Source of the DNA: an uncultured Muribaculaceae bacterium
Lineage (GTDB): Bacteria > Bacillota_I > Bacilli_A > RF39 > UBA660
Assembly: GCA_964513435.1 (NCBI GenBank)
Contig: CAZEMQ010000001.1
Span: 5,883 to 69,882 of the forward strand
Length of the DNA stretch: 64,000 nucleotides
Direction: 5' to 3'
The position numbers and the translations under genes were made by a program. Shown here piece by piece: positions 2,573 through 53,673 of this stretch; positions within the stretch are counted from its first letter, which is position 1; the number at the start of each line of letters is the position of its first letter. The notes beneath the pieces were generated by a model, which saw only the letters and a list, made by a program, of their open reading frames with translations, did no database searches and was not told the origin of the DNA.

Positions 2573-3025
2573 ATGTTTACAGGTTTTGTTCCAGTACAAA
2601 ATGCAGAAGAAGTCGCAAAGAAATCGTTTGATTTATCGAACGGGACTTCACCGTTTCAACACGATGTTGAATTTACCGTTACGGGATGGGATATGCATTA
2701 TCGAACAGAGGACAATAGAGTAGTTCAAGGCTCGAGAGCATTACCGATTTTGAAAACTACTATCGGTGATTGTTTTATTTCAATGATTATTAAAGCGAAG
2801 GTTTCAGCAGATAGAAAGCTCGTTGAACCAAGCGGAACCTTTAATAAGAAAGTCAGAGAAATAATCATAGACAATCGAGGGAAATCTACTTACGACATTC
2901 TTAACGCGATTTGCGATGCGGCTAAAGACAAGAAAATTCGCGTTTCACGTGAATTTTATCCAGCATTGGCAAAAGACGGTAGGGAATATCCGGGCTACCT
3001 CGTTAATCTCAATTTCATAGACTAA
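2573..3025 (+). CDS. hypothetical early protein (GC-richer codon usage)
   Basis: First ORF downstream of the control region. Composition distinct from the bulk genome. Confidence 0.45.
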   Translation: MFTGFVPVQNAEEVAKKSFDLSNGTSPFQHDVEFTVTGWDMHYRTEDNRVVQGSRALPILKTTIGDCFISMIIKAKVSADRKLVEPSGTFNKKVREIIIDNRGKSTYDILNAICDAAKDKKIRVSREFYPALAKDGREYPGYLVNLNFID

Positions 3026-3091
3026 AGTCTATCGACCTAAGCAAGTCGATAAACTGCTTACTTTTAATCTAATAATCTAAATAATAAAACT

Positions 3092-3412
3092 ATGTTACTT
3101 CATACAAACACTCCGATAATAAATAGATTTTTTACCGCAGGTTACATGATTAATCATAAAATGGTAAAGAAGTTCTACAATATATTCAAAACTACTGAAT
3201 ATTTTACATTAGATGAAGATTTAATTAATATCTTAAAAGACAGCGAACTTGAAGAAGCGAAGAAAATAATTCGCTTAAATGATAGGAGGAAAGGGATAGG
3301 AATTGAATCTAATAACAGTGCTTTATATAGTTCTTCTGATGGGTTAAGAATAAACTACAATGATAAACATAGCAGACAATTACTTAATCCTGGAATTTAC
3401 TATGGAATTTAA
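3092..3412 (+). CDS. hypothetical protein
   Basis: ORF from the track. Confidence 0.35.
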   Translation: MLLHTNTPIINRFFTAGYMINHKMVKKFYNIFKTTEYFTLDEDLINILKDSELEEAKKIIRLNDRRKGIGIESNNSALYSSSDGLRINYNDKHSRQLLNPGIYYGI

Positions 3413-3418
3413 TAAAAT

Positions 3419-3456
3419 AAGGGTGTTCCTCGAAAGAGGTTCACCCCTTATCTTTT
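3419..3456 (+). terminator. rho-independent terminator
   Basis: GGGTGTTCCTC-GAAA-GAGGTTCACCC hairpin followed by a T-tract. Confidence 0.55.
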
Positions 3457-3713
3457 GAATACAAACGATACTATGTTGCACCAACTACACTATGTTGCAC
3501 CAATAACCTAGCCAAATATATTACCTAAATAACCTAGCCAAGTGTATAGGCAGCTATAATTACTTAGTGTATAAGGAATGTATACATTATACTATTATAG
3601 TATGCAACAATTTAATGATGAAATCATATATCTCACATCTAAAAAGAGAATATATCCTATTTTAATTATTAATCTTTAAAACCTTATGGTGTATAGGAAA
3701 CCGTATTTAAGAA

Positions 3714-41885: not shown

Positions 41886-43184
41886 ATGAAATATTGTATG
41901 ATAAAAGTAAGAAAAAGAAATGGAAATCTTGTACCTTTTGAAGTGCATAAAATAGAAAATGCCCTTCAAAAGGCTTTTCTATCTTGTAATTATAAGATAG
42001 ATAAATCTATAATAGAAGAAATTGCAAGCAATGTTAGTATCTGGAATGAGATCAGTGTAGAGGATATTCAAGATCAAGTAGAGGAGCTGTTGATGGATTA
42101 TGATTTCCCATCAGTTGCTAAGTCTTATATTCTTTATAGAGCTAAACATAGTGAAGCTAGATTTATTAAAGAGAGAATAGATTATATGAATAAATATAGT
42201 CTATCTAGTGATAATGCAGCTACTTCTTCAGAGACAGATGCCAACGCTAATGTTACTATGAAGAATGTTGCTAATCTAGAAGGAGAAGTATACAAGACTA
42301 CTAATAGAATTATTCAAAGACAAAGAATAAAGGATAAGTTATCTGAACTCTTTCCAGAGATAGCTAAGCAATATGAAAAAGATCTTGAAAACTATATAAT
42401 TTACGCACATGATGAGTCGCAGACTCCTACCCCGAAGGCATATTGTATGGCTGCGACTTTATATCCTTTAATGCTTGAAGGAACAGGCAGTATTGATGGG
42501 ATAACCCCTTCAGCACCTAATGACATTCAATCTTTTAGTGGACAAGTAACCAATTTAATGTTTCTACTGTCTTCACAAGTTCGTGGAGCAGTGGCAATGG
42601 GTGACTATATAATAGCTTTAAATTATTATGTAATTAAAGAGTTTGGAACTAGTTGGTATGAAAAACTAAATGCTATAGTAACCTCAGAGTATTCTATAAA
42701 TAAACGTACTATTAAAGATAGTATTAGGAAAGGAATGAAACAATTTATTTATGGAATAAATCAACCAGCTGGTAATAGAAGCTACAATAGTCCTTTCAGT
42801 AATTTAAACTTCTTTGATAAATATTATTATGAAGCTCTTTTTGATGAATTTTATTATCCTGACGGAACAAAACCTGAATGGAAAGCAATAGACTGTTTAC
42901 AAAGAATGTTTATGGAATTACTTAGAGAGTTAAGATTAATTAAACCCCTTACATTTCCTGTAACTTCTGTATGTATGTTACATGATAATCATGATTGTTT
43001 AGATCAAGAATGTAAGAAATGGGTTGCTGAAGAATGGGCTAAAGGTAGTAGTTTCTTTCTATATCTAAGCAATAATCCAAATTCAGTATCTAGTTGTTGT
43101 AGAGTACAAAATGAAATAACTGAGAATACATTTAGCTCTACTACAGGAATGACTGGGGTCAAGTCATGGCCCTTATGTGCTTAA
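41886..43184 (+). CDS. nrdD: anaerobic ribonucleotide reductase NrdD, N-terminal piece (ATP-cone + core)
   Basis: VRKRNGNLVPFEVHKIENAL is an ATP-cone; this piece ends ...TGMTGVKSWPLCA-TAA. Confidence 0.6.
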   Translation: MKYCMIKVRKRNGNLVPFEVHKIENALQKAFLSCNYKIDKSIIEEIASNVSIWNEISVEDIQDQVEELLMDYDFPSVAKSYILYRAKHSEARFIKERIDYMNKYSLSSDNAATSSETDANANVTMKNVANLEGEVYKTTNRIIQRQRIKDKLSELFPEIAKQYEKDLENYIIYAHDESQTPTPKAYCMAATLYPLMLEGTGSIDGITPSAPNDIQSFSGQVTNLMFLLSSQVRGAVAMGDYIIALNYYVIKEFGTSWYEKLNAIVTSEYSINKRTIKDSIRKGMKQFIYGINQPAGNRSYNSPFSNLNFFDKYYYEALFDEFYYPDGTKPEWKAIDCLQRMFMELLRELRLIKPLTFPVTSVCMLHDNHDCLDQECKKWVAEEWAKGSSFFLYLSNNPNSVSSCCRVQNEITENTFSSTTGMTGVKSWPLCA

Positions 43185-43787
43185 TTGTCAAATCGGACAA
43201 TGTTACAAAGAAATAATTTTATTTATATTACTTTGGTAGTTATAATATTTTATTACCTTTGTAGCATCGGTGAAGCCTAAGTTAGAAGTAATATGGTAAT
43301 ACCGAGCTAAATTAAAGAAGGTATGGATAAAACGGGTAGAAGGAGTTAAAATGAAAGACATATGGGAATCTTATAAAGAGTTATACTCGTTAAGTAGGTT
43401 TAGAAAAGTAGTATTAGGTTATATTTATACTAATATTCCTATGCCCAAGAGAACTAATAAATGTCAAAAAAGAAAGATACTGACAAAAGATGAAGTATCG
43501 TTTATAAGACAGAAATACAGTGATGGTTATAAAATAATGGAAATTATAAGAAAGTGGTTTCCTAATATTTCCGAATCTACTGTAAGTCAAATAGTTCATA
43601 ATAAAAGCTATACCAAAATTTAATATGCGTGGAGGTCATTCCCTAAGTGATGAGCAGGGAAGTAGGGCTACTATTGATACGTAGCAGAGTTTTAAGAAAT
43701 GAAGCTCTTGAAAACCGAAATAGCACACCTATATGTTATATAGGAAGATATGACCCATATTTTATAGAAATATAAAAAGTACTATGT
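43185..43787 (+). other. intervening sequence 1 in nrdD (intron or HEG-mediated gene split), with a degenerate HEG remnant
   Basis: ATGACTGG is duplicated at both junctions. The S-like element AGATATGACCC is present. Confidence 0.4.
43351..43623 (+). CDS. HEG-remnant DNA-binding protein (NUMOD/HTH-like)
   Basis: ILTKDEVSFIRQKYSDGYKIMEIIRKWFPNISESTVSQIV resembles homing-endonuclease C-terminal DNA-binding modules. Confidence 0.35.
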   Translation: MKDIWESYKELYSLSRFRKVVLGYIYTNIPMPKRTNKCQKRKILTKDEVSFIRQKYSDGYKIMEIIRKWFPNISESTVSQIVHNKSYTKI

Positions 43788-44333
43788 ATGACTGGTAGTT
43801 GTAATGTGATTACTCTTAATATTAATAGGATTATTCAAGACTTTTGCAGAACAAATATGCTGGTAAATCTTGATGGAGAACTTGTTTCTCCTATTAATAA
43901 TGTTTATAAGTGGGAAGATGAACTCAAAAGGTATTTGACTACTATACTGGAGAGAGTCTACAAATACCATATAGCCTTCAAGACTATACTCTATGAACTT
44001 GAAGATAGAGGAATGTATAGCAGTTCTAATGCTGGATATATATTTTTAAAGAAACTATATTGTACAATAGGAGTTATAGGGTATTGTGAAGCTGCAGAAT
44101 TTCTCGGGTATGAAATAAATAATAATCCCGAGTACAAGAGCTTTCTAAAGTTAATATTTGAGACTATACAAGAGCAGAATAAGAAAAATTCTATACACGA
44201 TAAGAAACGTCCTTTTGTATTCAATTTGGAAGCGATCCCTAAACTCTCTGGGGATGTAAAATCTCTTTTGATTGACTCGGAACTCCTTTTAAGAGGACAA
44301 CGAGGCGCAAGCAACTTAATGTGTGCAGCGTGA
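43788..44333 (+). CDS. nrdD: NrdD middle piece
   Basis: MTGSCNVITLNINRI resembles the NrdD (G)xxxxTLNLPRI motif. The frame opens at 43776. Confidence 0.55.
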   Translation: MTGSCNVITLNINRIIQDFCRTNMLVNLDGELVSPINNVYKWEDELKRYLTTILERVYKYHIAFKTILYELEDRGMYSSSNAGYIFLKKLYCTIGVIGYCEAAEFLGYEINNNPEYKSFLKLIFETIQEQNKKNSIHDKKRPFVFNLEAIPKLSGDVKSLLIDSELLLRGQRGASNLMCAA

Positions 44334-44529
44334 CAGACTAAGTAAAGAGAATCTTATTAAATATATGTGAATATGTTTATAATAAGGTATGCAATAGTCG
44401 AGACTTGATAGTAATATCAAGAGATTAATAGAAATATTAATCCGTCTAACATAAATATAATTTTTACTTTGAATTATGTGTTAGATCATCCTTCACCGAT
44501 TGAAGAATAAGAAATATAATAAATAAATT
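44334..44529 (+). other. intervening sequence 2 in nrdD (~200 nt, ORF-less)
   Basis: The C-terminal exon frame opens after TAA at ~44528, with no canonical start codon until TTG 44695. Confidence 0.35.
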
Positions 44530-45030
44530 TAATTCTTCAGAAGGAGCGTAATAGAATCGGGAGAAAATTTAGCAGTCAAACTGTATCAGAAAGACAAAGA
44601 AGATGGCTACTGGGTTCCAGAAGATCAAAACTTATATAGCAGTTACTTCTTTAAGCAATGGGATCCAGATATATCTGTTCTTGATAAGTTAAATTTGCAT
44701 GGCAGAGACATAAATATGTATTGTGGAGGAGGTCAGGCATGTCATTTACATTTAGATGAACATTTAAGTTATCAGCAATATATCAAATTGATAGATTATG
44801 CTGTAAATATTGGATGTAATTACTTTACGTTTAATATACCTATGTCTGAATGTAAGGATTGTGGGCATGTTATAAATGCTCCCATACAAGAATGTCCTAA
44901 ATGTCATAGTAAAAATATAGACTGGTGGGTACGAATAATCGGGTTTTTAAGGCCTATAAGTTCTTATAGTAAGGAAAGACGAATAGAAGCAAGCCACCGT
45001 GTATATAATCATGGAATAACAGAAGTATAA
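44530..45030 (+). CDS. nrdD: NrdD C-terminal piece (zinc ribbon + glycyl-radical motif)
   Basis: CKDCGH...CPKCHS followed by RIIGFLRPIS (glycyl radical). Confidence 0.55.
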
Positions 45031-45530
45031 TGCTTAAATACATTGAAACTCAAGTCACATTCAGTGAGGTTCCAGATGAAATTACTCTCTGTATAAATAT
45101 TACAGGATGTAAAATAGGATGCAAGGGATGCCACTCGCCTTATTTAGCAGAAGATATAGGAAAACCTTTAAATAAAAATGAAATAGAAGAGTTAATTAAA
45201 AGAAATGATGGAATTACCTGTATAGCTTTTATGGGTGGTGATTCCGATCCATTTTTAGTAGATTGTCTTGCTGAACATATTAAAACTTGGTATTATCCTA
45301 TAAAAACAGTTTGGTATAGTGGAAAACAAGAACTTAGTGATAAAATTCATTTACAATGGTGGGATTTCATTAAACTTGGACCTTATATTAAAGAACTAGG
45401 GCCTTTAACTAGTAAAACAACTAATCAAAGATTTTATAGTGTAGAACACAGAGAAGATAAGCATTGGTTAATAGATAGGACTGGGGAATTATTTTGGAAC
45501 GAATTTAAAACTCAACTATATGAAATATAA
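45030..45530 (+). CDS. nrdG: anaerobic RNR activating enzyme NrdG (radical SAM)
   Basis: CKIGCKGCHSPY is a CxxxCxxC cluster. Confidence 0.6.
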   Translation: MLKYIETQVTFSEVPDEITLCINITGCKIGCKGCHSPYLAEDIGKPLNKNEIEELIKRNDGITCIAFMGGDSDPFLVDCLAEHIKTWYYPIKTVWYSGKQELSDKIHLQWWDFIKLGPYIKELGPLTSKTTNQRFYSVEHREDKHWLIDRTGELFWNEFKTQLYEI

Positions 45531-50778: not shown

Positions 50779-51133
50779 AATGAACTTAAATGAATTTAGA
50801 ACATTAAGAAAACCTTTTTATATCCATCCAGAAACTTTATTAATTAAGTTTCCCAGACAAAAACATCTGGATAGTTCTTGCGCGGAATGGTTCAGTGACG
50901 AAAATATTCCTTTTTTACATACAATTAGAGGATATTATAATGAAGAGGATAATTATGTAATGTTATATACTAATGATTTTGAAACACCAGATATTAGTAT
51001 AAAATTCTTAACATACATTTTTGAATATTTTCCTAATATAGATTGGATTGGTATAGGGTGTATTAAAGGAAAGGAAGGTGAAATATGGAGTCCAAAAATG
51101 AAAATACAAAGAACAAATGTTAATAAGAAATAA
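50771..51133 (+). CDS. hypothetical protein
   Basis: ORF from the track. Confidence 0.3.
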   Translation: MNKMNLNEFRTLRKPFYIHPETLLIKFPRQKHLDSSCAEWFSDENIPFLHTIRGYYNEEDNYVMLYTNDFETPDISIKFLTYIFEYFPNIDWIGIGCIKGKEGEIWSPKMKIQRTNVNKK

Positions 51134-53673
51134 GATTGTTATTGTATATGATATAGAATTATTTCCCAATGTTTTTTATTGCACATTAAAAGAAACAGAA
51201 TCAAATAAAAATGTTTCATTAGAAATTTCAAATCGAAAAAACGACATACACAAAATAATTAATTTTTTTCATAGAGTTAAAACAAAAGTAAACTCTAGAA
51301 AAGAAATTAAAGATAAATATATATTTTGTGGATATAATAATATACACTACGATAATGTTATAATTAATTATATAATTGCTAATCGAGAACGATTAATAAA
51401 TTGTAATTATGCACAAATATGTGCTGAATTATTTGAATTAAGTAATCAAATTGTTAATTCTGGAGACGGTATTCAATCTTGGTATAAATGGAAACATCTT
51501 ATTTATTTTGACACTTTAGATTTACTCACAATGTTGTTTTCTCAAAAACTTAGAGTAGGTTTAAAATCTATGCAAGTAACAATGCAATATTCAAATGTTC
51601 AAGAATATGAAGGTGATTTCAGTAAACCATTACCAGATTCTGAAATTCCAAAGATGGCTGCATACAATATCAATGACGTTGAGAGTACAACAGAATTATT
51701 AAACAGATGTAAATCGGATATTGATTTAAGACTTAATATTGAAGAAGAATACAATATTGATGTTTTAAATAAAGATGGGGTGAATATTGGAATGCAAATT
51801 ATTGCACAAAAATATTTGGAAAAAACTAAATTAAAATGGAAAGATATTAAAGATTTACGAGATCCGTGTGATGTTATAGATCTTAATCAAATAATTTTAC
51901 CATTTATCAAATTTGATAATCCGATTTTACAAGATGTATTAATAGAACTTAAAAAACAAAAAGTATCTCCAGGTAGAAAAGGTTACGAACGACATTTTCT
52001 ACTAGATAATGTTGAATATACCATAGGAGTGGGTGGTATTCATAGTGTAAATACACCTGATATATTCAAATCTGATGAAAATTGGGTAATTTCAGATATT
52101 GATGTTGCGTTAATACATTGGCGCAAGTAAAACAAACTAAATTGCGGGAACATTCTTAGAGCTTTTGTTACCAACTTATAATAGTAATATATAAGGGCAA
52201 AACTAATCACTTTGATAAGGTAAAAAGACAAAAGATTGGATAATCCGCAGCCAAGTTACCTATTTTAGGTAAAAGGTTCACAGACTATTCCTTTATGGAA
52301 GTAGGGTATAAGTGACGTTTATATCCGAAAAAGTTTGAATTTATTTTGGGAGCTAGCATTACATACTTTTAGATAAAGACGAACTAGCCTTAAAAGGAAT
52401 GTATCAAAATAAATTATGATATAGTCGATAATGAGTCGAAAGATTCATACACACGAGTAAACGTCTTAGTGTGTGAGAAAAGCGATGTATCCCAGTCTTA
52501 TAATAGAACATAAATTTTATCCACCTCAATTAGGAGAAGCGTTTTTACATATTTATTCTAAAATTAGAGAAGAAAGAGTAGAAGCTAAACATAAAGGATT
52601 TAAAACAAAAGATGCTACATTGAAGTTAGCCTTAAACGGGTTGAATTTTCGTTTCAGCTCCTTCATCCAGGGATGGATGATGTAAACAAACCAAAATCGG
52701 TGAAAGTCTGGAATGATAATACCGAGGTAATTGTAGAAACTAAAGAGTCTACAACACCGTACAGCATAGAGACTGAACCTGATTAGTCAGAATAAAATGT
52801 CTCCACGAGTGGTTTGATCTAGAACAGAATAAAATATATGCGGATCTATAACGAATTAATAAGTTATAGAAGTATGGGATAAAAAACCTGTACGATAACA
52901 ACAATGTGAGTGGCATGCTTCAAAATGAGTATAGCTTTTGTTATTCTCCCATTACAGCTATGAAAGTTAGAATAAATGGACAATTAATGTTATTAATGTT
53001 AGCAGAACGGTTAATTAACATTGGTTGTAAGGTCTTAAACGCAAATACGGATGGAATCTTTGTATTAAGATCTCGTTCTGAAGAAAAAATGTTTCAACAG
53101 GTTTGTAGGGAATGGGAAAAATTAACCAAACTTACACTTGAAGAAGATAAATTTGAAGCCTTTTATCAATTTGCTATTAATGATTATCTTGCGATTAAAG
53201 AAGGATATAGTAAAACTAAAAATCCAAAACTATTAAAGAAAAAAGGATTATTTATAGATACTGTATCTTTAGGGAAAGGAATGAATGCAATAATTATTCC
53301 AGAGGCAATTAATAAATATCTTGCAGATAATATTCCGTTAAAAGAAACCATATATAATTGTAAAGATATTAGTAAATTTTTAACTTTTCAGAAAGTGGCA
53401 AAAACCTTTTCTGTGGAATATAATGGTAAATTAATTACTCATATAAATAGATATTATGTATCAACTGATGGGTATAGTCTTTATAAATGTAAAGTCAATA
53501 CAAAAGGAGAAAGAAGTGGATATATAAATATGTTAAAAGGATATGGAGTAACTATAACAAACAATCTTGATGAAATAAAAGAATTTCCGAATAACGTTAA
53601 TTATAATTATTATATCACAGAAGCTAATAAAATAATCACAAAACTTAAACAAAAACAGTTAAGTTTGTTTTAA
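51117..53673 (+). CDS. family-B DNA polymerase, three exons (51117..52110, 52483..~52640, ~52888..53673)
   Basis: Exo motifs YDIELFPN, YNNIHYDNV and YNINDVES. Spliced motif A DIDVA|SMYPSLII; motif B region KLALNG|LYD; DTDG motif C variant in exon 3. Confidence 0.6.
52111..52482 (+). other. group I intron (ORF-less, 372 nt) in the DNA polymerase
   Basis: P AAATTGCGGGAAC, Q AATCCGCAGCC, R GGTTCACAGACTAT and S ATGATATAGTCG are all near-consensus. Exon 1 ends in U, the intron ends in G, and splicing restores motif A. Confidence 0.7.
52641..52890 (+). other. second intervening sequence in the DNA polymerase (~250 nt, type unresolved)
   Basis: Exon 2 terminates at TAA 52683 after motif B begins. 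The exon 3 frame opens at ~52870 and completes motif B. Core intron elements are not clear. Confidence 0.35.

Follow-up and report, generated by a model that had tools for sequence, protein, structure and literature searches.

The gene for the anaerobic ribonucleotide reductase (RNR) NrdD lies in three separate open reading frames (ORFs) within a 64-kb stretch of contig CAZEMQ010000001.1 (64,000 nucleotides (nt); called the window here, to which positions refer unless another contig is named, and on whose + strand all of its features described below are located). Judged from the sequence, these ORFs very likely belong to a single nrdD gene carrying two group I introns of the self-splicing kind that have lost their homing-endonuclease genes. 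Intron 1 (43160..43786, 627 nt, last base G43786) appears to be a group I intron of the IA type, with P7.1 and P7.2 helices and an ORF in the loop of P6, and intron 2 (44241..44559, 319 nt, last base G44559) a compact group I intron without an ORF. This reading is favoured because the helices P1 and P10 and the terminal G of each intron sit where the intact protein is restored.

In the mechanism that we propose, nrdD would be transcribed into one pre-mRNA, probably together with the activase gene nrdG, and each intron would fold into a group I core and be excised via two guanosine-initiated transesterifications, joining U43159 to U43787 and U44240 to G44560. From the mature mRNA a single 732-aa class III reductase would then be translated, to be activated by NrdG. 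Both introns would derive from mobile introns that home to these two positions of nrdD in other phages of the gut, the homing-endonuclease genes having been deleted in the window phage, and they have probably lost the ability to move unaided. The sequence shows the limits of the exons, the geometry of P1, P10 and the terminal G, the placing of both cores in two large phage intron families with covarying helices, and the endonuclease remnants; that the introns are spliced, that nrdD is co-transcribed with nrdG and that mobility has been lost are inferred from it.

The preliminary description of this DNA had recognised one NrdD in three collinear pieces, and the ORFs are present as it stated: in Pfam searches piece 1 (41886..43184, 432 aa) matches the ATP-cone and positions 8–274 of the NRDD profile, piece 2 (43788..44333, 181 aa) positions 276–415 and piece 3 (44695..45030) positions 463–560. 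The gaps of 603 and about 200 nt that it gave are correct from ORF to ORF, but the intervening sequences measure 627 and 319 nt, the introns being longer than the ORF gaps because each upstream ORF runs into its intron before reaching a stop codon. By BLASTN of the region, the closest relatives of the window are bajarodcaudo virus 1, IAS virus, cr111_1 and cr85_1 (67–70% identity), crAss-like phages from stool and faeces; Bacteroidetes have been assigned as hosts of such phages (PMC7886860). All four carry an uninterrupted nrdD of 717–748 codons followed by a 4Fe-4S/NrdG-like gene, and the best match to the window in IMG/VR reaches 65% protein identity. The anaerobic host that the presence of NrdD and NrdG had been taken to imply is probably correct.

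Alignment to the intact nrdD of these four relatives, a check that the preliminary description had proposed, joined the three pieces into one gene and set the limits of the exons. Exon 1 (41886..43159) encodes the ATP-cone and the N-terminal two thirds of the core and ends in ...ACU GGG GU, exon 2 (43787..44240) reads U AUG ACU GGU ... AUC CCU and is gapless against the relatives at both ends, and exon 3 (44560..45030), which was also aligned to Thermotoga maritima NrdD, starts with GGA GAA AAU and encodes the zinc ribbon and the glycyl-radical C-terminus (..WWVRIIGFLRPISSYSKERR..), with the stop codon at 45028–45030. The predicted splice junctions join ACUGGGGU to UAUGACUGG (wider context ...AUGACUGGGGU to UAUGACUGGUAGU...) and GCGAUCCCU to GGAGAAAAU (wider context ...GAAGCGAUCCCU to GGAGAAAAUUUAGCA...), and the predicted peptides across them are TGMTGVMTGSCNVITLNINR and FVFNLEAIPGENLAVK. 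The spliced ORF comprises 2199 nt and 732 aa without an internal stop, and its product is gapless across both junctions relative to the four intact proteins. It scores above the curated equivalog cut-offs of TIGR02827 (581.8 versus 568.3) and NF006127 (555.5 versus 545), and over residues 114–726 it aligns with T. maritima NrdD (4COI), a match that takes in the RI.G(Y/F)L loop. None of the three exons contains a frameshift or stop, and the SCCR and VITLN motifs, the zinc ribbon and the RIIGF glycyl-radical loop are retained. By these sequence features, the predicted product is a class III (anaerobic) ribonucleotide reductase NrdD.

Splice sites and ribozyme cores of the two proposed introns

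A repeat of ATGACTGG had been noticed at both borders of the first gap, and the 64-kb window indeed contains exactly two copies, at 43149 and 43788. The intact relatives have ...NTFNPTSGLTG-V-MTGSCNVITLNINR at junction 1, whereas in the window piece 1 ends with ...TTGMTG-V (followed by KSWPLCA and a stop codon) and piece 2 begins with MTGSCNVITLNINR; a ...SG(L/M)TGVMTGS... motif is likewise encoded by the uninterrupted genes. On this comparison, the two copies are the halves of a conserved G(L/M)TG-V-MTG motif. An insertion scar or duplication is thereby ruled out, the intact relatives encoding the same motif without interruption, as is a junction within the repeat, since these relatives have the extra V-M-T-G. 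The junction falls instead at GGG GU^U AUG ACU (^ marking splice or piece boundaries), with 5 nt between it and the first copy upstream and 1 nt between it and the second copy downstream, and removal of the 627-nt interval preserves the frame, with U43159 before it, G43786 as its last base and U43787 next. It had been claimed that simple group I splice rules (a U before the intron, a G at its end, the frame kept) could not be satisfied at this gap. All three hold at GGG GU^U AUG, where P1 and a 6-bp P10 are found as well. The idea of genes in pieces arose because the junction had been assumed to lie inside the ATGACTGG repeat.

Both introns have a U-G pair in a P1 of 5–6 bp, a terminal G, a P10 of 5–6 bp adjoining P1 and a length that keeps the frame. 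For the analysis of the cores, covariance models were built from family alignments of diverse relatives, 33 for intron 1 (model R2) and 41 for intron 2 (model R1), from which the window and its closest kin were excluded.

In intron 1, P1 is formed by 43155–59 GGGGU and 43169–73 GCCCU, with U43159 paired to G43169, and P10 by 43163–68 GUCAUG and 43787–92 UAUGAC, immediately 5' of the P1 3' strand. These helices were checked by script, as were P2 (43185–89/43196–200), P7 (43634–39 GGUCAU/43750–55 AUGACC), P7.2 (43667–71/43681–85), an extra helix (43686–90/43704–08) and P8 (43728–34/43738–44); P4 (43268–72/43300–04) and P6 (43308–13/43617–22) were read by hand from the sequence, and the 3' strand of P7.1 (43640–44/43656–60) was set by hand. 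A GCUA/UAGC pairing considered for P7 was dismissed, this helix being P7.2. In the conserved core P2, P4, P6, P7, P7.1, P7.2 and P8 are thus located, and the 3' half covaries in the family. The 5' half can be compared with three relatives only, and the automatic four-sequence alignment is too poor to provide covariation evidence. The 3' catalytic core (43628..43759) is delimited by model R2 and by family covariation; run on the whole window, R2 matches 43628–43759 with 108.7 bits (E 7.5e-25), and within this match three P7 pairs are changed on both strands (GGUCAU/AUGACC versus GACUAU/AUAGUC in the family). A BLASTN match of a 110–230-nt stretch of the first gap to Prevotella Lak megaphages and Enterococcus phage EF1 is the first sign of what appears to be a conserved non-coding element.

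In intron 2, P1 pairs 44235–40 AUCCCU with 44250–55 GGGGAU, U44240 facing G44250, and P10 pairs 44245–49 UCUCU with 44560–64 GGAGA over 5 bp directly adjoining P1. All of P3 to P8 could be located, including the P3/P7 pseudoknot: P4 (44276–79/44301–04), P5 (44284–88/44293–97), P7 (44336–40 GACUA/44395–99 UAGUC) and P8 (44353–59/44380–86) were, like P1 and P10, checked by script, and P3 (44262–68/44344–50) and P6 (44305–08/44328–31) were assigned by hand from the model alignment and the sequence. The catalytic core (44257..44404) is defined by model R1, Rfam RF00028 and family covariation. On the whole window R1 matches 44257–44404 alone (87.6 bits, E 1.4e-17), and in a 351-nt search RF00028 (Intron_gpI) aligns P3 to P9 (37.8 bits, E 2.5e-8). 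The minimum free energy fold (z = -4.89) shows P1, P4–P6, P8 and four P9 hairpins, two of which have GNRA loops.

The relatives have FNSEVVP^AESLGGKNYRWDKEDGYW at junction 2, where the window has FNLEAIP(KLSG...) and (...SVIES)GENLAVKLYQKDKEDGYW. A homologous intron occupies precisely this site in two IMG/VR contigs, L217 and L256 (GAAGCCAUCCCU^AAAUCUCUGGGGAUG...), and the 3' end of their intron, ...GAAGGGGUGUAAUAGAAUCG^GGGGAAGGA, aligns base for base with ...GAAGGAGCGUAAUAGAAUCG^GGAGAAAAU in the window. The P10 of L217 is UCUCU/GGGGA, its pairing kept despite the changed sequence. Splicing after AAUCG (G44559) would give EAIP^GENLAVK... with the length found in every intact relative, and with the intron end at G44559 the TIGR02827 score is 581.8 bits, against 572.6 bits for G44544.

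Intron families and rival explanations

Scans of IMG/VR with the 17-mer CTACTATTGATACGTAG for intron 1 and the pattern GCAGCGTGANNGACTAAG for intron 2 retrieved at least 120 stretches with the intron core motif for each family. For the intron 2 family, RNAalifold recovers P3, P4, P5, P6 and P8. When the invariant P7 pseudoknot is added, 99.0% of cells are paired and 14 pairs are doubly changed, values reached by none of 500 shuffles, and P3 and P8 are fully covarying; sliding the partners leaves 36–52% paired. For the intron 1 family (P7, P7.1/7.1a, P7.2, the extra helix and P8), 94.2% of cells are paired and 14 pairs are doubly changed. None of 500 shuffles reaches its paired fraction, number of doubly changed cells or covariation score, the count of doubly changed pairs is reached by 9 of 500, and further pair types do not exceed the shuffles. 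Across both families the slid controls give 33–52% paired. The intron 1 family has a GACUAU-hairpin-AGUAGGG motif that probably corresponds to the IA2 core found in the Twort and T4 td ribozymes. A BLAST search of cultured phages with the consensus sequences of the families returned no experimentally studied reference intron.

Several observations weigh against the two-intron reading. The main formal weakness of intron 1 is that Rfam RF00028 gives no match for it, and no confident assignment could be made for its P3. Nor do any of 17 other loci of the intron 1 family reach the RF00028 gathering score, two of these having no match even at E<=1, and the match of RF00028 to intron 2 stays under the gathering score as well (37.8 versus 50). 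An intron-less copy of the window phage was not found in IMG/VR or by exact-protein look-up. The look-up returned a sole further assembly with an identical NrdG, Logan SRR7039262_51336 (locus L330, 5588 nt), an equally arranged copy with the same three-piece nrdD and the same 90-aa ORF in the first gap, in which the pieces were called as separate genes. Finally, the 3' splice site of intron 2 is based on two related contigs only, on P10 and on protein length, and an in-frame alternative exists at G44544.

RF00028 is weak for ORF-bearing IA introns, and wide scans with it, over a 4.5-kb region and over related loci, gave no group I match. Both families are abundant in phages and nearly invisible to the Rfam group I model, and group I introns of both are probably under-annotated.

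Splicing of intron 2 at G44544 would follow the same mechanism and yield ...EAIP^SVIESGENLAV..., five residues longer, with the junction CCCU^AGCGUAAUAG. This site, too, is a G that leaves the frame intact, the protein obtained from it remains above the TIGR02827 cut-off at 572.6 bits, and tblastn homology with L217 continues through (S/G)VIES. However, compared with the four crAss-like relatives and with T. maritima NrdD, the product would have five extra residues inserted here, and it scores 9 bits below that of G44559, and P10 would have just 2–3 bp rather than 5 bp. In addition, G44544 falls in a helix, UCCUUC/GAAGGA, in which comparison with L217 (CCCUUC/GAAGGG) shows covariation of the outer pair, and GUAAUAGAAUCG is identical in DNA between the window and L217, as expected of intron rather than exon. 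We therefore regard G44544 as an unlikely end of intron 2 and prefer G44559 on the strength of the L217/L256 comparison, P10 and protein length.

That the insertions are dead, non-splicing elements in a decaying, non-functional nrdD is suggested by the loss of endonuclease genes from both introns, yet such a pseudogene is highly improbable: the exons are intact with their conserved motifs, nrdG is intact, and the changes in the ribozyme helices are compensatory rather than disruptive, as in the three P7 pairs of intron 1.

Slightly less probable still is a gene in pieces, an alternative raised in the preliminary description, in which the three ORFs would be translated separately and assembled into a split NrdD, as happens with nrdA, split by mobE, in Aeromonas phage Aeh1. 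T4-like phages do have split RNR and polymerase genes that are functional (PMC2988022), a homing-endonuclease-related ORF lies in the first gap and an ATG at 43788 starts piece 2. This ATG, however, codes for the Met conserved in VMTGS, a residue that the uninterrupted genes have too, and both gaps contain ribozyme cores with P1, P10 and terminal G at the positions that restore the protein. For piece 3, the stretch from the upstream stop (44530) to the TTG at 44695 is free of ATG, GTG and TTG codons, so that its separate translation would drop 45 conserved residues, and separate translation of the upstream pieces would add non-homologous tails (VKSWPLCA; KLSGDVKSLL...MCAA) at conserved positions of the core. 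Inteins or translational bypassing have a negligible probability, despite an intein 20 codons upstream in the nrdD of Lak phages, because the exon frame stops 25 nt into the first gap and 93 nt into the second, the other frames being closed too; Hint/intein motifs are absent from the window gaps, and 627 and 319 nt far exceed known bypass gaps.

Homologous introns, endonuclease remnants and neighbouring genes

Homologous introns at the nrdD codon position of intron 1 occur in Lak-B1, Lak-A1 and the IMG/VR contig L162. In Lak-B1 exon and guide co-vary, with GGGAU/GUCCU as P1 and UUGG/UCAA as P10, compared with GGGGU/GCCCU as P1 in the window. Site 1 is thus shared by the crAss-like phage of the window, the ~540-kb Prevotella Lak megaphages and a 178-kb contig, and site 2 is shared with contigs of 168 and 225 kb. 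Elsewhere, a relative of intron 1 in Enterococcus phage EF1 splits a DNA polymerase gene beside annotated 'phage intron' endonucleases, and a relative of intron 2 splits a P22-type coat protein gene in MW202674. From their positions, these relatives of both introns appear to be mobile introns that insert into conserved genes of phages. The coat gene of MW202674.1 has been annotated as two coding sequences (2192–2494 and 2712–3707) with a 'hypothetical protein' between them; the interruption, ~238 nt long, belongs to the intron 2 family and lacks an ORF (L009, 2474–2711).

The 90-aa ORF in intron 1 (43351..43623), preceded by AAGGAG 7 nt upstream of its ATG, matches PHROG 517 (helix-turn-helix, HTH) and PHROG 20467 (C-terminus of an HNH endonuclease). 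Its residues 3–65 are 44% identical to residues 211–274 of the GIY-YIG ORF in the Lak-A1 intron. The Lak intron ORF has 298–299 aa, with TAG read as sense, and contains a GIY-YIG domain (PF01541, 26.8 bits versus a cut-off of 22.6), whereas a Pfam search of the 90-aa ORF gave no match to this catalytic domain. L162 encodes a longer version of the ORF that extends upstream of the window's start codon. The PHROG matches and the Lak homology bear out the earlier suggestion of a homing-endonuclease DNA-binding remnant, and the ORF probably represents the C-terminal DNA-binding third of a GIY-YIG homing endonuclease, a remnant of this family rather than a member. The introns of L217 and L256 encode an HNH_3 endonuclease (34.3 bits versus a cut-off of 24.8), of which the window intron 2 keeps only ...NYVLDHPSPIEE and a stop codon, matching ...YYVLNHPSPIKEL at the end of the L217/L256 ORF; by this comparison it retains only the last ~11 codons of the HNH enzyme.

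Taken together, we tentatively suggest, as a possibility that we hold with less than even confidence, that homologous introns at two shared nrdD sites in unrelated gut phage lineages have been moving between phages that co-infect Bacteroidota, that the genome in the window is at a late, endonuclease-less stage of homing for both, and that the 90-aa HTH fragment may have been kept as a DNA-binding regulator.

Further interruptions of nrdD were observed among relatives. About 21 of 80 related IMG/VR crAss-like nrdD genes (L010–L089) carry insertions of 200–1260 nt, located at residues ~305–313, 359/361, 401–405 and 597/599 (in the numbering of a provisional 737-aa splice) and in no case at the window's own two sites. 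In the crAss-like group, nrdD seems to act as an insertion hot spot, with six or more different sites. The Lak nrdD genes carry an apparent intein at SSC^C (CFDGDT....ITHN^CRLKN), ~20 codons upstream of the intron (L007/L008, 830–1400), and the Lak intron ORF has in-frame TAG codons, consistent with TAG recoding in Lak phages.

As had been described, nrdD is followed by nrdG (45030..45530), which encodes a predicted 166-aa activating radical-SAM protein with matches to TIGR02826 (143.5 bits, slightly below the cut-off of 151.7), PHROG 626 (4.9e-8) and Fer4_12 and with the CX3CX2C radical-SAM motif in the form C-KIG-C-KG-C. Its position is that of the 4Fe-4S gene after nrdD in IAS virus. The nrdD stop and the nrdG start overlap at 45028–45032 (TAATG), which suggests translational coupling of reductase and activase.

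A second three-piece gene is present ~6 kb downstream of nrdD, at 51117–53673. Although Pfam finds nothing in its pieces, it looks like a family-B-type DNA polymerase by the motifs ..DIDVA^S^MYPSLII.. and ..KLALNG^L^SGML... Its putative intron A (52111..52482, 372 nt) has a P1, UUGCGU/GCGCAA, with the U-G pair, ends in G52482 and keeps the frame, and model R2 matches 52277–52430 with 20.3 bits (E 0.0057), including the elements GACUAUUCC..GGAAGUAGGG and GAUAUAGUC. An intron B (52642..52906, 265 nt) is tentative, and with it the number of group I introns in the window would rise to at least four.

In annotation, what would be recorded as three 'NrdD fragments' plus two 'hypothetical' stretches should become one 732-aa gene with two introns, and the downstream polymerase gene would change likewise. 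The window offers a nucleotide-exact example of group I introns in a crAss-like RNR gene, the closest NrdD relatives being those of Steigviridae with uninterrupted nrdD. Intron-split genes are likely to be under-called in gut viromes because the Rfam group I model is nearly blind to both of these abundant families. What is known of how such introns work is unchanged.

Comparison with known systems

Group I introns in phage nrdD are already known. The nrdD gene of T4 carries one (PMC2988022), nrdD was the RNR gene most often split in a survey of phage genomes (PMC3653736), and group I introns have been reported in Delta and Zeta crAss-like phages (PMC7886860). In Bacteroides Jug phages, group I introns split nrdD in 95 of 104 genomes, and splicing was confirmed by metatranscriptome reads (PMC12880540). 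Of modest interest in the present case are the sites shared across distinct gut phage lineages, the loss of both endonuclease genes and the near-blindness of Rfam.

The arrangement resembles T4 nrdD (sunY) with I-TevII, where the anaerobic RNR gene of a lytic phage likewise contains a group I intron with a GIY-YIG-family ORF and nrdG lies near, and it resembles the T4 nrdB intron in the loss of the endonuclease by a large deletion, as in the truncated I-TevIII (PMC2988022). In contrast to T4, the window represents a crAss-like lineage with two introns rather than one and an NrdD of the TIGR02827 type rather than the TIGR02487 type of T4 and Escherichia coli. The Jug jumbo phages (PMC12880540) and the Delta and Zeta crAss-like phages (PMC7886860) share the ecosystem, the host phylum and the target nrdD, and their introns are likewise group I introns of small size, some with HNH or GIY-YIG ORFs and some without. 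The nrdA-a/nrdA-b genes of Aeh1 with mobE, an example from T4-like phages, are similar in that several ORFs make up an RNR gene and sequence related to endonucleases separates them. However, genes split by homing endonucleases in this way have no ribozyme and own translation signals for each piece, whereas the window has ribozyme cores and a third piece without a start.

At the level of the individual intron, intron 1 resembles that of the Lak phages (MK250015-28), in which the intron is unannotated. Both interrupt the Val/Ile codon that precedes (M/Q)TGS after its second base, their 5' ends (UAUGUGCUUAAUUG..) and 3' cores are homologous with 76–87% identity over 110–170 nt, and they share the same unusual P7, GGUCAU/AUGACC, and homologous ORF C-termini. 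The two introns differ in P2.1 and P8, and the Lak nrdD has an additional intein. While the Lak intron, at ~1.2 kb, contains the full GIY-YIG ORF, the window keeps its last 90 codons.

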